Source: Leptolyngbyaceae cyanobacterium (GTDB lineage Bacteria > Cyanobacteriota > Cyanobacteriia > Phormidesmidales > Phormidesmidaceae). Taken from it: a DNA stretch of 64,000 nucleotides. Position numbers and translations under genes: made by a program. Positions 37,620 through 52,331 of the stretch are shown in pieces. Position 1 is the first letter of the stretch, and each line of letters opens with the position of its first letter. The stretch lies in NCBI GenBank assembly GCA_965263355.1, contig CBDHHL010000056.1, positions 608,001-672,000 on the forward strand. Reading direction: 5' to 3'. Below the pieces are notes generated by a model that ran no database searches, was not told the origin of the DNA, and saw only the letters and a program-made list of their open reading frames with translations.

Positions 37620-39698
37620 TCAACCAGGTTCGGCTAGATAGGACTGTAAGTGAGGATTCAAGGCTTGGCGGGCAGCCATGGCATGTTCGAAACGCTTACT
37701 TTGATTTTGCTGAATCAGTTTATCAAACCAGTCTCCTATAGAGTCTGGAACTGATGCAAACTGACGCCATGCTAAATCACCACTTACAGTTGGCAGGGTT
37801 AGCTGGTCTATAGATTGACCTGTCAAAGCTTGGAGTCCGATTAAACCAAGGGCATATATGTCACTACTCATGACCGGGCGACCAATACGCTGCTCTAGGG
37901 GCTGATAGTCGCGTTGCATCAGCAGTTGCTTACGGTATTCGGCAGACTGTTGGCTAACGCCAATCATGACGCGTTTACCTAGACCACTATCTATCAGCAT
38001 CATGGATGGACTTAGGGTTTCTCGACCACCAGTCTGAATAAAAGAGTCATCCCTCAATCCTGCATGGATCTGTTTGTGTCGATGAAATATCCCAACTTGT
38101 TCAAGTAAGCGGTCCATGAGCAACAGGACTGACTCCAACGGCCAAGGTGCCTGTAACTTGGCTTGTAAGAGTTGTTCCTGATTAAAGGCTTCTCCTAACC
38201 CGTGGATGATGTAGAACGTATTGTCTACTTGACCAAAGGTATATCCAGGAAATTGAGAGCGTAGAGGTTCGAATTTTTCTGTTTCCTTTTCCATAACCCG
38301 CTTTAAAAGCTCAGCGGTATCTTGGGAATAGGCTCTAAGTGTCTGCAACAGTACTAAGGAATCTGTTTGCTTATCTAGGGCAATTGAGATGGGCCCCAAT
38401 GGTTCTTGGCGAAGAAAGTACTGTACCTGATAGCGTTGTGCTGCAAATCTTGAGAAAGATCCTTTAGGCACCAATGAAATACTGGCAGTTCCTGATTGGT
38501 TACCAGGCTGTGAAGTCTCTATGGCCTTAATCGGTTGAATATCCTGGGCCCGTTTAGAGGATTGAGATAGTTGTCTGGATTCAAACTGTTCAGATGGCTG
38601 TTTGGTTGCTTTGACGATCGCAAGTTGAGTTTCAACCCTGGCAAGGGTAACAGCAAAATCTATGGGTTTAGTAATATAATCATTGGCCCCGAGTTCAAAG
38701 GCTTTGACCATATCGTCACTTTGGGCCTTTGCAGTCACCATCAACACTGGCATTTGGTTGCGGGAATAGGTTTGCCGAATACGTTTTAACGTTTCAATGC
38801 CGTCAATTCCCGGCATCATGATATCCAACAAAACTAGGGCCACGCCTTGGTTATTTTGAATGTAATCCAAAGCGGCCTCTCCGCTTTCTACCACCACTGC
38901 TTGATAGCCACGACGGTTAAGACGGCGACTCAGCATGTCGCGGTTGTCTTCGTTATCATCGACCACAAGAATGGGTAGCCCACTGAATGCATTTTGAGAT
39001 TTTTTAACTGCAGCAGGGGTTATCGGCATTTCATTATCGTCGAGTGTCATTGGGGTGATGGGGGTAACGGGAGGCATCGTCACATCTGCAGTAATTGGAG
39101 TTACTGGAGCGATTGGCGTGACTGAGGCTGTAGACGGAGTCGTCAGTGGAGTTGTGATGGGAGTAACGGGAGAAGTAGGTGGAGTGGGTGAAGTCGTCTT
39201 TGGTGGTGTAATCGGAGAGACTGAGGCAGCTGGTGCTGTAATTGGGGCCACTGGTGTGATGGGAATAACTGGCACAGTGGTCGTTTCAGAAACGGCTGGT
39301 GCTTTCGGCTTGTCTGACACTCTGTCTAGCTGTTCAGCGGATAGGAATGCCTTGATCTTGCTTAGTAATCTTTTGAGATCAATTGGCTTAGTGTCATAGT
39401 CGTCACAGCCTGCTGCCAAGGCTTGATCCCGATCACCCCGCATGGCATGGGCGGTCAAGGCAATAATGGGAACCTGCTGTGTATGGGGTTGGGCTTTTAA
39501 TCGCCGGGTTGCTTCCCAACCATCAATTACCGGCAGACTCATGTCCATGAGAATAAGGTCAAATGGCTGAGCGGATGCGATCGCAATCGCTTCAGCCCCA
39601 TCTACTGCAACAGCTAAATCATATCCACGACGACGAAGGCGTCGACTTAACATGTCTCGATTTAGCTCGTTATCTTCAACCAATAAGATTCTTGTCAT
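37620..39698 (-). CDS. Response regulator: REC, Pro/Thr-rich linker, REC, Ser/Thr kinase-like (pseudokinase) domain
   Basis: Two intact REC domains, a PITP/PVTP repeat linker, and a kinase C-lobe motif SSDIYALG with the catalytic loop degenerate. Confidence 0.85.
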   Translation of the reverse strand: MTRILLVEDNELNRDMLSRRLRRRGYDLAVAVDGAEAIAIASAQPFDLILMDMSLPVIDGWEATRRLKAQPHTQQVPIIALTAHAMRGDRDQALAAGCDDYDTKPIDLKRLLSKIKAFLSAEQLDRVSDKPKAPAVSETTTVPVIPITPVAPITAPAASVSPITPPKTTSPTPPTSPVTPITTPLTTPSTASVTPIAPVTPITADVTMPPVTPITPMTLDDNEMPITPAAVKKSQNAFSGLPILVVDDNEDNRDMLSRRLNRRGYQAVVVESGEAALDYIQNNQGVALVLLDIMMPGIDGIETLKRIRQTYSRNQMPVLMVTAKAQSDDMVKAFELGANDYITKPIDFAVTLARVETQLAIVKATKQPSEQFESRQLSQSSKRAQDIQPIKAIETSQPGNQSGTASISLVPKGSFSRFAAQRYQVQYFLRQEPLGPISIALDKQTDSLVLLQTLRAYSQDTAELLKRVMEKETEKFEPLRSQFPGYTFGQVDNTFYIIHGLGEAFNQEQLLQAKLQAPWPLESVLLLMDRLLEQVGIFHRHKQIHAGLRDDSFIQTGGRETLSPSMMLIDSGLGKRVMIGVSQQSAEYRKQLLMQRDYQPLEQRIGRPVMSSDIYALGLIGLQALTGQSIDQLTLPTVSGDLAWRQFASVPDSIGDWFDKLIQQNQSKRFEHAMAARQALNPHLQSYLAEPG

Positions 39699-39737
39699 AA
39701 TCCCCTTAATTAACCTCAGCCTACAATCACTACCGGG

Positions 39738-42611
39738 TTAATCAGATGCACTAGACACCGTATCGGTGCTAGAGACTGAATCTGTGGTGCTAGGCATTGA
39801 GATTGCCTTAGTTGAAACCATCGCCTGCAATTCATCTAAAAGCTCTTGACGATTTAGATCGGCCTTTTGATACACCCGTGCTACACCTTCTAGCTGTTGC
39901 TGATCGCTGACTGTTAATGCCTTCGCTGTCACCACAATGACCGGTATATCCTGCCAATCAGAGTTTTGCCTCAGCACTTGAATAAACTCAAACCCATCCA
40001 TTTCAGGCATCATTAAATCCAGTACAATTAGGTTAGGCCGCTTATTATTCAGGTATTGCAATGCTTCCCGTCCATTGGATGCCAGTTCAACAGTCCAGTC
40101 TTGTCGCTGCAAGAAGCGTCCCATTATCTCTCTTGCATTCACATCATCTTCTACCACTAGAATGGTAGGAGAAACTTGGTTTGCAAGGTGAGTCTCTAAA
40201 ACACTTATCAAACGCTTACGATCAATTGGCTTCGTTAGATAGTCAGCCGCCCCTAAGCTATGTCCCGTAGGACGATCATCTACAATGGACAAGAGGATAA
40301 CTGGAATTTCAGCAACAACTGGCATTTCTTTGAGTTGCCTTAGTACTGACCAGCCATCCATTTGTGGCATCATCACATCCAGCGTAATAGCATCGGGCAA
40401 GATTTCACCTGCTAGGGCCAACCCCTGCTCACCACTAGCGGCACAAACCACCTCATAGCCAGCCTCATCGAGGGAGCGACGTAAAATTTCGCGAGCATCA
40501 TCGTCATCGTCAATCACCAAAACTGTCTGTCTTGACGACTTATGGATTGGAATACTCTTCGGTTCAGTGGGCTCACTGTCGGTAGCGGATAAGGGAGGGG
40601 CAAAAAAGGCTTTACCTCTTGGATTAGTCGCCCGTACTACTTGTGGAATCACTAGCGAAAATGTAGTGCCTTGTCCATGGGTACTTTCTACGGAGATATC
40701 ACCACCCATCATGTTGATAAACTGTTTAGTAATCGCTAGTCCCAAACCTGTGCCACCATATTTACGGGTAGTAGACGCATCGGCTTGGGTAAATGCATCA
40801 AAAATCTTCTCTATTTGATCATCTTTCATGCCAATGCCCGTATCGCTGACGATAAAACGGAACCAATCTCCGTCGTGTACGGAACTATCAATAGTAGGAA
40901 TTTGTTCAACTGTTAAGGTGATATTTCCATCTTCGGTAAATTTGCAAGCATTACTCAGCAGATTAAACAAGCTTTGCCGTAGCTTTGTTTGATCGGCGTG
41001 GAGTTTGCCAATATCATCAGGACAGAAAATGGACAGATGATTGTTATTTTTATGGGCAACAGGAACAATTGTGCCAGAGATTTCCTCTACCATTTCTCTA
41101 ATGGAGAAGTCCTCCAAAAACAGCTCCATGCGTCCCGCCTCAATCTTAGACAGATCGAGTACTGAATTAATTAATCCCAGCAAATGTTTACCTGCGCCTT
41201 GAATTTTTTGAAGGTCAGGGATAAAGTCATCTTCTCCGACATCAGTTGCTTCTTCTTCCAACATTTCGCTGTAACCAATAATTGCATTCAGCGGTGTGCG
41301 CAACTCATGACTCATGTTGGCTAAAAATTCACTTTTAGATCGATTTGCATCTTCTGCCTTGACCCTTGCTTCTTCAGCCTCTTCCATGGCTTTCATAAGT
41401 TTGGTCGTCCGATCTTGCACACGACTATCCAAATCGCGATTTAATTCCATTAACTGTTCTTCAGCCTGTTTACGTTCAGTGATATCCTGCAAAAATAAAG
41501 ATAATCCATCACGGCCAGGATATCCTCTTACCTGCAACCATCGCTGTGTGGGGGCATAGTAGGTTTCGAAACTGACGACCGTTTGCTCAGCCATAGCTCG
41601 ACGATATTGTTGCTCATAGCGAGCCCCTAAGGATTCAGGGAAAATTTTCCAGAAGTCTTGATCCAAGAGGCCCTGAATGCTACGTTTAAGTACTTCTGCC
41701 GCCTGTGCATTGACATAGGTCACCTTCCAACCTCGATCAACAGCAACAAAAGCATCGGTAATATTTTCCAGAACGCTGGTGGTACGTTGACTAGACTGAC
41801 GTAACCGGGCGATCAAACTATAGGCAATTATAATAATGATTACTAAAACAACCAATGAGGCTGCATATCTATATATGACAACCTTTGTAAACGCTTCTCG
41901 GCTCGACTGATCAAAGGTAGCTTCTAGCTCACGAATATTAGTCGTTAGGGGTAAATTGACGACTTGATCCAACAGTGCATCAGCGGACGGCTTATTGTCT
42001 AGGACTGTTTGAGTCAGCTGGACTACCTGGTCTACATCTTCTGAACTAGAAAACTCACCCGAATTGAGTTTAGACTTAACCGTATTTAATTCCTGTTCGA
42101 TTGTAGTCACCAATTGTTCATCGGTGGCCATGATGTAAATCAAAACATCGTCGATTAATCGTTCAAGGTCTGCATCACTAGTATTCTTGAGCTTATTGAC
42201 TAATCCAGGTAATTGGATTAAAGCTTTTTGTAGCTCTGCATTATTCGCCTGAAATTGTTTAACCAGTTTAGTTTTTTCTTCTAAAAGCTGAGCGTCTCGA
42301 TTGATCAGACTTTGCAACTTTGTCCGATCATCTTCTACTACAAAACTGGGTATTTTTTCTGCTAAATCTTGCTGAATAGCAAGCTCCTCAGCCAGGGCTT
42401 CTTCCAGTGGCTCATCATTTCTTAGGAGTGTGTAGCGTTCTTTCAGTAGTGCTAGCTCAACCTCTGTATCACTTTGTACTTGGTTGGCGATTAAATCTGC
42501 ATATTCTTGATATCGGTTAACATCAACAGACTTTCCTTTAATCCCTAAAAATAAGAGGAGGATAAAAGCTGCGGCTACACCTGCTCCTTTAGATAAAGAG
42601 TCTTGATTCAC
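39738..42611 (-). CDS. Hybrid sensor histidine kinase (helical extracytoplasmic sensor, PAS, HisKA, HATPase, 2xREC)
   Basis: [36 protein letters not shown]; two REC domains; GTG start with GGAGG RBS. Confidence 0.93.
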   Translation of the reverse strand: MNQDSLSKGAGVAAAFILLLFLGIKGKSVDVNRYQEYADLIANQVQSDTEVELALLKERYTLLRNDEPLEEALAEELAIQQDLAEKIPSFVVEDDRTKLQSLINRDAQLLEEKTKLVKQFQANNAELQKALIQLPGLVNKLKNTSDADLERLIDDVLIYIMATDEQLVTTIEQELNTVKSKLNSGEFSSSEDVDQVVQLTQTVLDNKPSADALLDQVVNLPLTTNIRELEATFDQSSREAFTKVVIYRYAASLVVLVIIIIIAYSLIARLRQSSQRTTSVLENITDAFVAVDRGWKVTYVNAQAAEVLKRSIQGLLDQDFWKIFPESLGARYEQQYRRAMAEQTVVSFETYYAPTQRWLQVRGYPGRDGLSLFLQDITERKQAEEQLMELNRDLDSRVQDRTTKLMKAMEEAEEARVKAEDANRSKSEFLANMSHELRTPLNAIIGYSEMLEEEATDVGEDDFIPDLQKIQGAGKHLLGLINSVLDLSKIEAGRMELFLEDFSIREMVEEISGTIVPVAHKNNNHLSIFCPDDIGKLHADQTKLRQSLFNLLSNACKFTEDGNITLTVEQIPTIDSSVHDGDWFRFIVSDTGIGMKDDQIEKIFDAFTQADASTTRKYGGTGLGLAITKQFINMMGGDISVESTHGQGTTFSLVIPQVVRATNPRGKAFFAPPLSATDSEPTEPKSIPIHKSSRQTVLVIDDDDDAREILRRSLDEAGYEVVCAASGEQGLALAGEILPDAITLDVMMPQMDGWSVLRQLKEMPVVAEIPVILLSIVDDRPTGHSLGAADYLTKPIDRKRLISVLETHLANQVSPTILVVEDDVNAREIMGRFLQRQDWTVELASNGREALQYLNNKRPNLIVLDLMMPEMDGFEFIQVLRQNSDWQDIPVIVVTAKALTVSDQQQLEGVARVYQKADLNRQELLDELQAMVSTKAISMPSTTDSVSSTDTVSSASD

Positions 42612-43175
42612 TAGAATAACCTCCTAAAAATTTTATCTATATAAGGAGAATGGTCGTCGGCTTGCATGACAACTGGTGGAAACACGTAGATATAAATGGA
42701 AAGTTTAACTATTTCTAAAACTCTACTGATGATCAGTAATGGTTGATTTTTAACTATAAAAAAAATATGAGTGCCATTATCAGGCAATTATCAAAGGCTG
42801 AACTGAAATAAAAATAACTTGGTAGTGCGAGCTCAATAATACTGCCAATCTATTTGGCTTTTAAGAAATAAAGGATTAATTTACTAGGTATTTACTTTAC
42901 AGAATATCAAGGTATTACTAATGAGATAATGCCACTCCCTTGACTGTCTGGTGAAATCAGGTAAGAGTAGCGACTTAAGTTTGTCAGCACCCAATTGCAA
43001 AAATAGCAAAACTTCTTTATAGAGATGCTTAGTAATAGCAATAGGTTCCGGAAAATGTATGTCTAAAGTCAAGAACATTATATCTATTTTTACCAACTAT
43101 GGTGTGAACATCACGCACGACAATTCATTATTTTGCCAGCCCTGGCTGTTAGCGTTGAAGGCTAGAAAGTACTGT

Positions 43176-45989
43176 TCATCCAGCTACTGGGGTTCTATTA
43201 GCCTCGGTAAAGGCAAGGGTGCGAACTTCATCCAGCAGCTCCTGACGATCAAAATCTGCTTTTTGATACACTCGCACAACACCCTTTAAACGCTGCTGAT
43301 CTTTGGCAGTAAGTGTTTTGGCGGTCACTATAATAATCGGAATATTTCTCCAGTCTGGCGTTTGACGTAAAATTTCGACAAATTCAAAGCCGTCCATTCC
43401 AGGCATCATCAGATCTAGAACAATCAACTGGGGAATAGAGTTTTTAATATAGTCCAGAGCTTGCTGACCATTGGCTGCCAGCACAACAGTCCAGTCATGT
43501 TGCTGTAAGAGCCGTCCCATGATTTCTCTAGCATTGACATCATCCTCAACCACCAGAATTTTAGGTTTGGTTGACACATGAAGTCGGGACTCTAAGGTAT
43601 CGAGTAGGCGAATGTGATCAATGGGTTTAAGCAGGTAGTCAGTAACCCATAACTGATGTGCAAGGCTAGGCTCTTCAGTCATCGATAGTAAAATAATAGG
43701 TATTTGGGAGACTGCTGGCATAGCCTTAAGTTCTTGCAGAACTGTCCCTCCATTTTGGTTAGATAACGCCATATCCAAAATGATTGCGTCGGGCAGTAGC
43801 TCATCAGCTAGCACCAATCCTTGCTGCCCATCAACAGCACATGCAACGTTGTAACCGGCATCTGACAAACAGTTGTGCAGGTTTTCACAAGCCTCTGTGT
43901 CATTGTCAATGACCAATATTGTTTGTTCTAACTTTCGACCCGGAATTTCATGAATTGTCGAAATAGGTTCTCTTTCAAGCAAGCGGACAGGAGGGGCAAA
44001 GAATGTTTGATTAGATGATCTGTCCACTTGGACTGTACGAGGCAGGGTAAGGGTAAACGTTGTTCCTTGACCGTAGGTACTGTCTACGGTTACGTCTCCT
44101 CCCATCATAGAAATAAATTGTTTGGTGATTGTTAGGCCTAAACCAGTGCCACCATACTTGCGGGTAGTTGAGGTATCTGCTTGGGTAAACGCCTGAAAAA
44201 CTTTCCCCATTTGATCAGGCGTCATACCAATACCGGTGTCCGTAACTGAAAATTTCACCCAGCTGTCTTTATGTACTTGATGATTGGACTGTTCAACCGT
44301 CAGTGTAATTTTTCCGTTTTCAGTAAACTTGCAGGCATTGCTGAGTAGATTGATCAAGCTTTGCCGGAGTTTAACTTGGTCTGCGTACAGGATGCCAATA
44401 TCGCCAGGACAAGCCAACGATAGTTGATTGCCATTTTTCTGGGCTAAGGGGTGAATAGTGCCGATAATCTCATCAAGTATGGTTTGAATGCAAATATCTT
44501 CTAGGAAAAGTTCCATGCGACCTGCCTCGATTTTGGATAAATCAAGGACTGAGTTAATAAGTCCTAAAAGGTGCTTCCCTGCACCTTGAATTTTTTGTAA
44601 GTCAGGAACAAACTCCTCTTCACCAATACTAGTGATGTCTTCTTCCAGCATTTCGCTGTAGCCAATGATGGCATTTAGTGGCGTACGTAGTTCATGACTC
44701 ATATTGGCCAGAAACTCACTTTTAGACCGGTTAGCATCTTCTGCTTTGACCCGTGCAGTTTCTGCTTCTTCCATGGCACTGGCTAGTTGAGCGGTGCGGT
44801 CTTTTACCCGGCTATCTAGATCGCGATTGAGTTCAATTAGCTGTTCTTCAGCTTGTTTGCGCTCCGTAAAGTCCTGTAAAAAGATTGATAAGCCATCGGT
44901 TCCAGGGTAGCCGCGTACCATTAACCAGCGTGCAGTCGGTTCGTAATAGGTTTCAAAGCTAACGACTTGTAGATTTGTGGCAACAGCTTGACGATAGTAT
45001 TCGGTAAAGCGTTTGCCAAGAGATGCGGGTAAAACCTGCCAAAAATCCTGTCCCAATAGCCTTGGAAGCTCGTATTTGAGAATATCAGCAGCCTGAGCGT
45101 TGACATAGGTAATTGACCATTTGCGATCAACTGCAATAAAGGCGTCAGTGATACTTTCCAGTACTCTAACGGTTTTCTGCCTGGATTGCTGTAGGCGATT
45201 GATCACCCAAAAGGCAACTGTGCACAGACTGACAAGGGTCAATATATAGATAAGGTTTCGATATAGAGCAGTTCTTGTACGTGTAGCTTGCTGGATGTCG
45301 TCAAACTGCTGTTCTAAGGCTCGAATATTATTAGTCAGTGGTAAATCAAATACTTGGGTAACCAGCTTATCCGCAATGGGTTTGTTATCTAAAACCAGTT
45401 GTGTTAGCTGAGTTATTTGACGTTGTGTTGATGAACTGGCCTCAAGTTTTTGGTTAAGACGATTGAGCTTTGTTTTTATACTGACCACCAGCTTGTCATC
45501 ACCGGTTACGGCATAAAGGGACAAGTCGTCTACCAAGGCTTCAACCTCAAGCTGAAGATTGCCACTTAGTCCATTGAGTAGATTAGCTTCTTGGGCTAAT
45601 GCCGCTCTCAATTCAGCATGGTGAATTTCAAGTTGTTCAATGAGTTGTCGCTTTTCAGCTAGAAGTTCAGCATTAAAGGCCAGTTGTTTTTGTAAACGGC
45701 TTTTATTTTTTTCCGATACTGAAATGGGAATTTGCTCGGTGAGTTTCACTTGCACTTTTTCGGCGTCAAGTAAAGCTACGTTCAAGGATTGACCGTTTTG
45801 TGAGATGGTGTAGCGGATATTTTGTAGCGCTAGTTGAGTTGCTGCTTCGTCAACAAGCTGATCGGAAATCAATGCACTGTAGCTACGATACTGATCAAAA
45901 TCAACAGCAATGTTTTTAAGACCTAAAATTGATAGGACTGAGAGTGTAGCGACAGCAGGTATACCCTTTAAAAAGTGCTTTCGTCTCAC
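43176..45989 (-). CDS. Hybrid sensor histidine kinase, tandem paralogue of 39738..42611
   Basis: Same architecture and near-identical H-box; GTG start with AGGAG RBS. Confidence 0.93.
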
Positions 45990-46453: not shown

Positions 46454-47317
46454 TTAGGCAACTGGGTCAAGGGAATGTTGTGCCCTAACGTTGCGACCAA
46501 TAGCCTGAGCAATGGGCGCTAAACTGTCTATGAGTTTGGCCATGGCCTCTAAGCTAATGGTTTGTCTGGCATCACTTACGGACTTATCTGGTTCTGGATG
46601 GCATTCAATGATTAATCCATCAGCTCCAGCTGCGATCGCAGCCCGAGCTAAGGCTGCAACCAGTTCTCGCTTACCGGTTGCATGGCTAGGATCAACCAGC
46701 ACGGGCAAGTGGATAATTTGCTTAAGGGCGACTACAGCACCGAGGTCTAACACATTGCGAGTATGAGTATCAAAGCTACGAATACCGCGTTCACACAGAA
46801 TAATATTGGGATTACCGTGGCTGGCAATATATTCTGCTGCCATAACAAACTCAGTTACCGTTGCCGCTAACCCTCGCTTGAGCAAAATGGGTTTATCCAC
46901 CTCACCCAAGGCCTTAAGTAAGTCAAAATTTTGCATATTGCGGCTGCCCACTTGTAGTACATCAGCATGGGGCATTAGCTTTTCGATCTGATGGATGGCC
47001 ATGACTTCAGTAACTACGGGTAAACCATAGCGCTGACGGATGGCGGCAAGAATATCCAAGCCAACGTCACCCAGCCCCTGAAATGCGTAGGGGGACGTAC
47101 GCGGTTTATAAATCCCCCCGCGTACGCCCTGTATAGCTAGGTTGGCGTTAGCAATGGCTTCCATTTGAGCCATGCTCTCGATAGAACAGGGGCCACCCAC
47201 GATAAACAGGTCTTGGCCACCGACGGTGATGGCAGGGGTGTGCTGGGTGGCGGGTGCGATCTCAATTTCACTGATGTGGTCAGTGTGCTGTTTAGCAATC
47301 AGTTTGGCGTCCTTCAT
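46454..47317 (-). CDS. aroF: 3-deoxy-7-phosphoheptulonate (DAHP) synthase, type I-beta, catalytic domain only
   Basis: GGPCSIES, KPRTSPYAFQG, GSRNMQNF, LLKRG, LCERGIR, DPSH and SD motifs. True start MKDAKL at 47317; the longer ORF is read-through of the repeat. Confidence 0.95.
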   Translation of the reverse strand: MKDAKLIAKQHTDHISEIEIAPATQHTPAITVGGQDLFIVGGPCSIESMAQMEAIANANLAIQGVRGGIYKPRTSPYAFQGLGDVGLDILAAIRQRYGLPVVTEVMAIHQIEKLMPHADVLQVGSRNMQNFDLLKALGEVDKPILLKRGLAATVTEFVMAAEYIASHGNPNIILCERGIRSFDTHTRNVLDLGAVVALKQIIHLPVLVDPSHATGKRELVAALARAAIAAGADGLIIECHPEPDKSVSDARQTISLEAMAKLIDSLAPIAQAIGRNVRAQHSLDPVA

Positions 47318-47339
47318 GGGTTTAGAAAGTAAGTAAAAA

Positions 47340-47660
47340 AAACAAAAAGCCCACAGCTTTTTGGGTAAACAAAAAGCCCACAGCTTTTTGGGTAAACAAA
47401 AAGCCCACAGCTTTTTGGGTAAACAAAAAGCCCACAGCTTTTTGGGTAAACAAAAAGCCCACAGCTTTTTGGGTAAACAAAAAGCAGCTTTTTGGGTAAA
47501 CAAAAAGCCCGCAGCTTTTTGGGTAAACAAAAAGCCCACAGCTTTTTGGGTAAACAAAAAGCCCACAGCTTTTTGGGTAAACAAAAAGCCCACAGCTTTT
47601 TGGGTAAACAAAAAGCCCGCAGCTTTTTGGGTAAACAAAAAGCCCGCAGCTTTTTTGGGC
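47340..47660. repeat. Tandem array of twelve ~27-bp units aaacaaaaagccc(a/g)cagctttttgggt
   Basis: Counted 12 units with no spacers. Unit 47475-47497 lacks 4 nt, the last unit is 28 nt, and three units carry g in place of a. Confidence 0.95.
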
Positions 47661-47667
47661 TCCGGGC
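47633..47667 (-). terminator. Putative attenuator terminator 2
   Basis: Transcript GCCCG-g-AGC-ccaaaaaa-GCU-g-CGGGC-UUUUUGUUU; its 5' arm overlaps antiterminator arm ACUUGCCCGG. Confidence 0.7.
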
Positions 47668-47690
47668 AAGTCAGTACAGCAAAGCAAACG

Positions 47691-47753
47691 CTACCTACCC
47701 GGTGGTGGCGTAAAAAAGAAAAAAGTAAATTGCCAGCTGTAGCAGACGATCAT
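47691..47753 (-). CDS. Putative aromatic-amino-acid leader peptide 2 (MIVCYSWQFTFFFFTPPPGR)
   Basis: Manual translation: 7 of 20 residues are Phe/Tyr/Trp; lies directly upstream of terminator 2 and aroF. Confidence 0.78.
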   Translation of the reverse strand: MIVCYSWQFTFFFFTPPPGR

Positions 47754-47811: not shown

Positions 47812-47844
47812 AAAACAAAACCGCAGAGCTTACACCCTGCGGTT
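47812..47844 (-). terminator. Putative attenuator terminator 1
   Basis: Transcript AACCGCAGGG-uguaag-CUCUGCGGUU-UUGUUUU: 10-bp stem with one G-U, then a U-tract. Confidence 0.82.
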
Positions 47845-47872
47845 CACCGGCTTCCCATGCTAGCGCTCGGGT

Positions 47873-47923
47873 TCATCGCCGGTGAACCTGACTAAACCAA
47901 AAGTAAAAAAATGAGTGCTGCAT
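47873..47923 (-). CDS. Putative aromatic-amino-acid leader peptide 1 (MQHSFFYFWFSQVHRR)
   Basis: Manual translation: six consecutive aromatic codons FFYFWF; the 3' end of the ORF contains antiterminator arm GGUUCACCGGC. Confidence 0.82.
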   Translation of the reverse strand: MQHSFFYFWFSQVHRR

Positions 47924-47965: not shown

Positions 47966-47994
47966 ACCTTAACGTGTCAAATTTAAACCGTCAA
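47966..47994 (-). promoter_or_regulatory. Candidate sigma70-type promoter for the leader-aroF transcript
   Basis: TTGACG-17 nt-TAAGGT on the minus strand, about 40 nt upstream of leader 1. Confidence 0.45.
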
Positions 47995-48022
47995 CCTGTA
48001 GAAGCGTTGCGTACAATGCCCA

Positions 48023-48068
48023 AGATTTTTTGTAGAGGCGTTGCATGCAACGCCTCTACAAAAAATCT
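48023..48068. repeat. Perfect 46-bp palindrome, GTAG-type REP-like; likely ends ridA transcription
   Basis: agattttttgtagaggcgttgca|tgcaacgcctctacaaaaaatct; a degenerate half-copy tgtagaagcgttgc lies at 47997. Confidence 0.85.
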
Positions 48069-51548: not shown

Positions 51549-52331
51549 ATGGCAAAGGCCATTCTAAACACTATTTCAGGCGCATTAGCAACATCGGTGG
51601 CTGTTATCGGAACAGCTGCGCCGATGGCGAGTGCCCAGGGATTTACCGGTAGTTTTGTTCCCGACCAGTGGGAGCTATTTAATAGCAGTCCGGCATTTCC
51701 TAATATTGATAATTCATTAATTACTATCGGTGGCGAGCCATTAGCTCCCTTTAATGGCTCAGTAGATTTTTCAGATGCACCTGATTCACTAACGTTATTA
51801 GGTAGCAACCAGTCGGCTATTTTGACTGCTCCAGGCTTAGCTGAATTTGGGCTGAGCTGTGATAATCCCAGCCTCCCAGCTAATTTACTATTTTTATGCA
51901 GTTCTAGTTTTACAGCGGTGTTTGTCACCGTTCCTGAAGCGCTGGATATTTCGTTTAGTTGGAACTATAAAACAACTGATAGCTTGGGTGCGGCCTTTGA
52001 CCCTTTTGGGTTTGCCATCGGCAACTTCCCGCCCACTGACCCGCAGGCTGACGGTATTTTTACTGAGCTGATTGATCGTAATGGCCCCATTGAACAATCG
52101 GGTACCACCCTTGTAGAGCTTGAAGCTGATCAAGTATTTGGCTTTCAAATTGGGACAGCTGATAACCAAGGTGGGCGCTCTGAGGCCGTTATTCGTGATT
52201 TCAGGGCAATGATTATGGAGTCTGATGAGATCGACCCGATATCAGTGCCAGAACCTACGTCAAGTGTTGCGATCGCACTACTTTCTGGTCTAGGGCTAGG
52301 TCTACGCCAAAAATCTCGTGCAGGGAAATAG
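51549..52331 (+). CDS. PEP-CTERM sorting domain protein
   Basis: Signal peptide; C-terminal VPEP, hydrophobic helix and basic tail RQKSR. Confidence 0.88.
   Translation: MAKAILNTISGALATSVAVIGTAAPMASAQGFTGSFVPDQWELFNSSPAFPNIDNSLITIGGEPLAPFNGSVDFSDAPDSLTLLGSNQSAILTAPGLAEFGLSCDNPSLPANLLFLCSSSFTAVFVTVPEALDISFSWNYKTTDSLGAAFDPFGFAIGNFPPTDPQADGIFTELIDRNGPIEQSGTTLVELEADQVFGFQIGTADNQGGRSEAVIRDFRAMIMESDEIDPISVPEPTSSVAIALLSGLGLGLRQKSRAGK

Follow-up and report, generated by a model that had tools for sequence, protein, structure and literature searches.

A predicted tandem transcription attenuator before a short DAH7P synthase gene in cyanobacteria, and the proline codons of its second leader peptide

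In a number of cyanobacteria, a DAH7P synthase gene whose product lacks an allosteric domain is preceded by two consecutive leader peptides rich in aromatic residues, and the element described here very probably forms the promoter-distal half of a tandem transcription attenuator operated by ribosomes, in which the PPPG motif of the second leader is a by-product. By analogy with classical attenuators, two serial switches most likely sense the supply of phenylalanine, tyrosine and tryptophan in many cyanobacteria and thereby govern the gene for the first step of aromatic amino-acid synthesis. The attenuator reading has good support from conservation, covariation, the geometry of the ribosome and the gene context, all derived from sequence; the sensing logic follows the classical trpL/pheL model, and the anatomy, the conservation and the helix covariation were computed in this work.

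The window (the whole stretch of DNA analysed, 64,000 nucleotides of a Leptolyngbyaceae cyanobacterium) contains the following features, given in the direction of transcription:

47966..47994, minus strand: predicted sigma70-type promoter for both attenuators (-35 TTGACG at 47994-47989, 17-nt spacer, -10 TAAGGT at 47971-47966)
47873..47923, minus strand: leader peptide 1, MQHSFFYFWFSQVHRR, with counterparts in 79 of 80 related loci
47819..47888, minus strand: attenuator 1 RNA switch (antiterminator arms 47888-47878 and 47851-47841; overlapping terminator 47844-47819, then a U-tract)
47691..47753, minus strand: leader peptide 2, MIVCYSWQFTFFFFTPPPGR, from ATG 47753 to TAG 47691
47688..47711, minus strand: protector or pause-type hairpin (47711-47704 with 47695-47688), in which the Thr15-Pro16-Pro17 codons pair across the stop codon
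47662..47702, minus strand: antiterminator 2, CCGGGUAGGU (47702-47693) with ACUUGCCCGG (47671-47662), 10 bp including two G-U pairs
47633..47667, minus strand: intrinsic terminator 2 (stem-loop 47667-47642, U-tract UUUUUGUUU at 47641-47633)
47340..47655, minus strand: tandem expansion (27 bp x 11.9) of the 3' half of terminator 2 and its U-tract, the first copy being the terminator 3' arm
46454..47317, minus strand: type I-beta DAH7P synthase of 287 aa that lacks the ferredoxin-like regulatory domain at its N-terminus, by profile and PDB matches

The comparative set comprised 80 cyanobacterial loci with the short synthase, the best 80 of 506 confirmed. Leader counts refer to 80 sets, namely 79 of these loci plus the window, one locus (L034) being omitted as it has only 102 nt of upstream DNA. 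Distribution was examined in a phylum sample of 151 evenly drawn cyanobacterial genomes and paralogue content in five relatives of the window genome, and relationships were taken from a quick tree of the synthase with clade support expressed as SH-aLRT.

The synthase gene and its paralogues

The synthase ORF is intact in the window, with its start at ATG 47317, and the product passes the cut-off for PRK08673 and TIGR01361 in the profile search. Its match to PRK13396, a longer profile, is confined to positions 93-348, so the N-terminal regulatory domain is lacking; in the PDB comparison, chains of 338 aa were matched only beyond their N-terminal part and chains of 262-272 aa from near their start. 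The genes located 3' of the synthase differ between relatives and the gap is mostly of hundreds of bases, therefore the synthase appears, from this gene context, to be transcribed alone. In the window the region 37620-45989 (minus strand) holds a tandem pair of large hybrid histidine kinase genes that resemble each other and then a response-regulator/kinase-like gene (translations, judged by eye), and the first of the pair also follows the synthase in several clade relatives. On the plus strand, 51549-52331 encodes a 260-aa protein with a C-terminal VPEP motif, a hydrophobic stretch and a basic tail, which we take to be PEP-CTERM-like.

The short synthase is present in 21 of the 151 phylum genomes. 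That it might be the sole DAH7P synthase of its clade was considered and ruled out, as a type I-alpha enzyme also occurs in all five relatives checked (two confirmed as TIGR00034); a long type I-beta form occurs in two of the five, and a type II DAH7P synthase in none of them. The attenuator-2 model gave no match upstream of five type I-alpha and three long type I-beta paralogues (the upstream DNA being short, 314 and 350 nt, in two), and two of the eight are preceded by an unrelated TTG-started aromatic ORF, by chance. A Nostoc genome contains a 110-aa open frame (L124/L128, G002:C90:76435-76737) with only the ferredoxin-like regulatory domain (PF18152), which may be either a gene fragment or a free-standing regulatory subunit.

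Leader peptides and competing RNA helices

The promoter predicted for both attenuators is missing from the list returned by the consensus scan; the pattern TTGAC-N16-18-TANNNT, at most 130 nt upstream of leader 1, was found in 75 of 79 loci versus none of 400 control CDS windows, and between the two leaders the promoter pattern occurs in none of the 80 sets. Between the promoter and a Rid-family gene lies a perfect 46-nt palindrome of two 23-nt arms (48023-48068), with an extra arm at 47997-48020 that is 83% similar to it. Palindrome-like sequence was also seen by eye upstream in three related loci (L007, L014, L016), and the element is possibly REP-like or the terminator of the upstream gene.

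Both leaders were found in 79 of the 80 loci (best 80 of 506), the exception being a contig that is too short upstream (L034). By aromatic fraction, leader 1 comes first and leader 2 third among the window's 555 ORFs of 14-30 aa that begin with ATG. The main control codons of leader 2 are Phe11-Phe14 (47723-47712), accompanied by Tyr5, Trp7 and Phe9, and no Shine-Dalgarno sequence is evident by eye before it. Phe, Tyr and Trp all occur in leader 1 in 77 of the 80 sets, and likewise in leader 2 in 77. In leader 2, the leader's own frame contains 10.4% Tyr and 7.1% Trp, versus 0.5% and 2.6% Tyr and 0.1% and 3.0% Trp in the two other frames; the signal therefore resides in the codons and not in mere U-richness. 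The distance from the last aromatic codon to the antiterminator arm is near-fixed, at 16 nt in 52 and 12 nt in 17 of 76 leaders.

The stem of terminator 2 (5 bp, a G.G mismatch, 3 bp and an 8-nt loop; -14.8 kcal/mol) shares the GCCCG of its 5' arm with antiterminator 2. Across 80 sequences it is 94.0% paired, with compensatory change at 4 of 9 pairs (45 cells), and the 7-bp core of antiterminator 2 is 94.5% paired with 10 compensatory cells; within the clade of the window, antiterminator 2 is paired in 98.8% of cells and shows no covariation. In pairing and covariation score both helices outdo 500 of 500 shuffles and all slid controls, which take no account of relatedness among the sequences. 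The fold of the attenuator 2 region as a whole is only moderately better than that of shuffles (z -1.77; equalled by 8 of 200), and terminator 2 of the window is among the weakest of its clade (-14.8 versus -14.4 to -19.6 kcal/mol). The consensus terminator scan picked up the terminator of attenuator 1, and terminator 2 is absent from its output. The RNA switch of attenuator 1 has compensatory changes at 10 of 16 consensus pairs (54 sequences).

The third helix, the protector hairpin, holds the CCGGG arm in its loop. Its 7 bp are 98.3% paired in 17 sequences (RNAalifold and pair counts), with compensatory change at two of the seven pairs (one event) and G-U changes at two, and at -7.8 kcal/mol it is weaker than antiterminator 2. 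The minimum free energy fold of the window also contains a long-range helix that joins the Tyr5-Ser6 codons to sequence beyond the stop codon. This helix was rejected as a conserved element: it is 93.1% paired in the clade, has no compensatory changes and is equalled by 94 of 500 shuffles. At E values up to 5 the Rfam search returned 12 matches, each under the gathering score and none to a leader-peptide family.

The open reading frame, the 10-bp pairing with two G-U and the overlapping GCCCG hairpin with its U-tract had been described in a first-pass annotation of this DNA, and coordinates and folding agree with that description in every respect. The same annotation held that attenuator 2 is not a recent duplication of attenuator 1, which stands: no direct repeats linking the two were found, and an attenuator-1 HMM scored attenuator-2 sequences much as it did partly shuffled controls (median 2.1 versus 1.4 bits, with matches from 51 and 45 of 80). 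Four features of a classical attenuator are present, namely an aromatic ORF before a biosynthetic gene, an intrinsic terminator (with a weak stem in the window), an exclusive antiterminator at the 3' end of the leader and, in the model described below, the stall geometry.

On the trpL/pheL scheme, when charged tRNA-Phe (and also the Tyr and Trp tRNAs) is plentiful the ribosome would reach the stretch from Thr15 to the stop codon and mask CCGGGUAGGU, whereupon terminator 2 would form and the RNA would end at about 47633. When charged tRNA is scarce, the ribosome would stall within the Phe run and melt the protector hairpin, and the stall would free CCGGGUAGGU to pair with ACUUGCCCGG, allowing transcription to run into the gene. 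Attenuator 1 would be passed first, and the two read-through fractions would multiply, giving less leak and a steeper response.

These states were modelled at equilibrium in five leaders, with 9, 12 or 15 nt masked past the first A-site base; in the available text of PMC3641672 a ribosome covers 12-15 nt from the P site. With all masks of 9-15 nt, the antiterminator persists in nascent RNA as long as the ribosome has advanced no further than Phe13-Thr15. Once any Pro codon occupies the A site it is gone (probability 0) and the terminator has probability 1.0, the reverse of a stall at proline codons that promotes read-through. In two leaders (L011, L016) the probability of full-length read-through is highest for stalls at Phe11-Phe13, where the protector is melted by the ribosome; in another (L007) the terminator prevails at equilibrium throughout, so kinetics must matter there. 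In ribosome-free nascent RNA the antiterminator dominates (P 0.68 in the window and 0.80-1.0 in relatives), so the protector is weak and termination in response to absent translation is not predicted; according to the model, loss of translation may derepress the gene and not super-attenuate it.

It is highly improbable that the switch is real and set by something other than a co-transcriptional ribosome, such as an RNA-binding protein or post-transcriptional regulation of mRNA stability, and that the aromatic ORF acts only once transcription is over. Transcription-translation coupling is described in the accessible part of PMC7858274 as not universal among bacteria, and a 2016 paper states, in its available text, that reliable data for attenuation in cyanobacteria do not exist (PMC4833913); however, the in-frame enrichment of Tyr and Trp fits a translating ribosome as the sensor, the codon-to-arm distance is near-fixed, a stop codon lies at the arm in nearly all loci, and both hairpins are U-tract terminators. 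RNA-seq contigs from four runs span the region at the locus of one relative (L129); in two runs the contigs are deeper at the leaders than within the gene, and the other two each give a single flat contig, contig depth being a quantity that cannot rank parts of a gene or show transcript ends.

The tandem repeat that extends terminator 2 separates the stop codon of leader 2 from the gene by 373 nt in the window versus 74-87 in clade relatives. Its units differ from one another, and the copy number is that of the contig sequence. A second repeat copy was found in none of 79 genome loci, and a close metagenomic relative (L106:545-640) carries one extra copy of the terminator 3' half; this copy and the divergence of the units indicate that the duplication is probably genuine. 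Among the sequences compared, the 12-copy scale of the expansion is particular to the window and would be lineage-specific. The repeat also yields a stop-free, TTG-started frame that runs into the synthase (46454-47638, minus strand; 394 aa in all); the synthase start is ATG 47317 by homology, and gene callers could misplace it into the repeat frame.

There is a modest chance that the system of the window is degenerate, the repeat and the weakened first stem making attenuator 2 leaky, or the extra U-tracts depressing expression, constitutively. In favour of this, the window alone has lost the innermost conserved stem pair of terminator 2, which 16 of 17 clade members keep, the distance to the gene is lengthened, and the consensus scan flagged two terminator-like sites within the repeat. 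However, the leader, the protector, the antiterminator, eight terminator pairs and the U-tract are intact, as is the synthase ORF, and the extra copies are very weak hairpins, folding at only -3.8 to -4.6 kcal/mol, which by these energies would be poor terminators.

The proline codons of leader 2

PPP occurs in 15 of the 80 leader-2 peptides (on the basis of the best 80 of 506 loci), all within one clade of 17 members whose other two leaders are ASPPGR variants; the clade has SH-aLRT 99 on the quick synthase tree and includes Leptothoe species and Leptolyngbya sp. PCC 7375 (locus L007). In its sister group leader 2 ends in FTPTGSG. Consecutive proline codons are not conserved across homologues, and Pro16 has once been replaced by Ser.

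In the alignment the PPP clade lacks 4 nt in the stretch that leads from the aromatic run to the CCGGG arm (12 nt, the usual distance being 16). Of the 80 leaders, 17 translate the arm as Pro-Gly, 58 as x-Gly-stop and one in the third frame, with four in which it was unlocated; since the 4-nt loss shifted the frame of the arm, Pro18 and Gly19 stem from the RNA arm itself. Thr15, Pro16 and the first two bases of Pro17 are paired within the protector hairpin. In the sister pair L011/L013 the changes Thr to Ala and Pro16 to Ser are matched by exact compensatory changes on the 3' side, so pairing was kept while the proline was lost (a single compensatory event), and in L002, L003 and L010 a synonymous change from CCA to CCG retains a G-U pair. 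Codons 17-20 are invariant in the clade, PPG (Pro17-Pro18-Gly19) being present in 17 of 17, and their third positions are frozen too, which fits a constraint at the nucleotide level.

On this comparative evidence the prolines are most likely a by-product of RNA base-pairing and carry no second signal: the 4-nt loss in one clade would have put the CCGGG arm into another frame, and pairing in the protector would hold fixed the C-rich codons that precede the arm. The first-pass annotation had suggested that PPPG times the ribosome on the antiterminator arm or adds a second input and had proposed PPP conservation in homologous leaders as a check; the restriction to a single clade, the shifted frame of the arm and the compensated loss of Pro16 all speak against that suggestion. 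A caution follows from PPP, in that RNA pairing can dictate peptide motifs at the C-termini of leaders. In another locus (L076:2817-2882) an independent frameshift makes leader 2 take the conserved arm in the third frame and end in ILRVS.

A ribosome on any of the proline codons covers the antiterminator. Pausing at these codons would thus work the same way as waiting at the stop codon, and according to the mask model a PPP pause could at most cut leak or tighten the off state. It is possible that PPG serves as a secondary, leak-reducing pause or is under selection at the protein level. It is unlikely that, within an otherwise conventional attenuator, PPPG was recruited in this clade as an EF-P- or proline-sensitive pause on the antiterminator arm that lowers basal read-through or adds an inhibitory input. 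PPG and polyproline are stall motifs relieved by EF-P according to the available text of PMC5021804, the geometry of the mask model sets a paused ribosome right on the arm, and besides the invariance of Pro17-Pro18-Gly19 in all 17 clade leaders, PPPGR was found in 7 of 7 true matches of a metagenome pattern scan that left the Pro codons free (27 matches, of which 20 were unrelated and dropped), several of the seven being near-copies of loci already in the set. Against these points, 65 of the 80 leaders lack the motif, the frozen third positions are as expected of an RNA-level constraint, Pro16 was lost once with compensatory pairing, and the ribosome is in any case parked at that position by the stop codon 3-5 codons further on; moreover, even six prolines lower an intrinsic-terminator reporter less than 2-fold in wild-type E. 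coli (PMC5021804, same text). It is equally unlikely that the marine clade kept the frameshift-born Pro-Pro-Gly as an EF-P-sensitive parking site, through which attenuator 2 would also report translation-factor or proline status and clamp entry into the shikimate pathway off; if true, such a site would be a by-product of RNA structure exapted as a nascent-peptide input.

Distribution and comparison with known systems

With scores of at least 55 bits, the covariance model of attenuator 2 matched 20 of the 151 phylum genomes (next best score 34), and all 20 matches are situated upstream of a short synthase. Each of the 21 short synthase genes has at least one of the two attenuators and 19 have both RNA modules. 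One locus carries attenuator 1 alone (L164, G043) and another attenuator 2 alone (L146, G094), therefore either unit can stand alone. In one of the 20 sampled genomes (L145:1455-1560) the RNA of attenuator 2 is intact and leader 2 has no in-frame ATG; leader 1 of this locus has a longer C-terminus.

A double attenuator in about 1 in 7 sampled genomes (21 of 151) would show ribosome-coupled control of transcription in cyanobacteria, pair a DAH7P synthase without an allosteric domain with control at the RNA level, and offer a direct test of transcription-translation coupling in these organisms. The natural single-unit variants would be useful to dissect the tandem logic, and the attenuator would be a target for higher aromatic flux in cyanobacterial biotechnology. 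A conserved double attenuator working in the manner of trpL/pheL is apparently unpublished. No report of a tandem attenuator in cyanobacteria, nor any report of attenuation there later than the 2016 paper, was found in a literature search that covered openly accessible main texts; the leader-gene tables of PMC4833913 and the attenuator database cited in PMC1173090 may include these elements. The rows of the putative-attenuator table of PMC1173090 that were available name no cyanobacterium, cyanobacteria are unmentioned in the accessible text of PMC11109978, and that of PMC7997468 mentions no such control.

In general plan the system resembles trpL and pheL of E. coli, where control codons are combined with an antiterminator that overlaps an intrinsic terminator, and the stop codon falls at the arm of the antiterminator (available parts of PMC11802643 and PMC3641672). 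These sense one amino acid with one unit each, whereas the cyanobacterial loci have two units and aromatic codons of three kinds. The closest systems in target, as far as the accessible descriptions go, are the aroR-aroF attenuator of Corynebacterium glutamicum (Neshat et al., 2014, as summarised in PMC11802643) and the uORFC-13-1 motif of Acholeplasma (PMC8632094), both of them single units and both likened here by description. In aroR-aroF a leader with Phe and Tyr codons precedes a DAHP synthase gene and ribosome stalling leads to read-through, as proposed here; it is a single Phe-Tyr-Phe leader of Actinobacteria, in contrast to two serial leaders, each usually containing Phe, Tyr and Trp, ahead of a type I-beta enzyme that has no regulatory domain. 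The uORFC-13-1 motif consists of a predicted Phe-sensing uORF and an intrinsic terminator before aroF, which also encodes a DAH7P synthase, and comes from Acholeplasma and environmental sequences only.

The serial arrangement has a counterpart in the mgtCBR operon of Salmonella, where two leader ORFs, mgtM and mgtP, follow one another and the second contains proline codons (available text of PMC3641672, also for what follows). The proline codons of mgtP are a conserved sensor at which a stall promotes read-through, whereas those of leader 2 are limited to one clade and a stall at them would promote termination. The two mgt leaders respond to different signals and are without intrinsic terminators; in the cyanobacterial tandem, by contrast, both units are aromatic and both have U-tract terminators.
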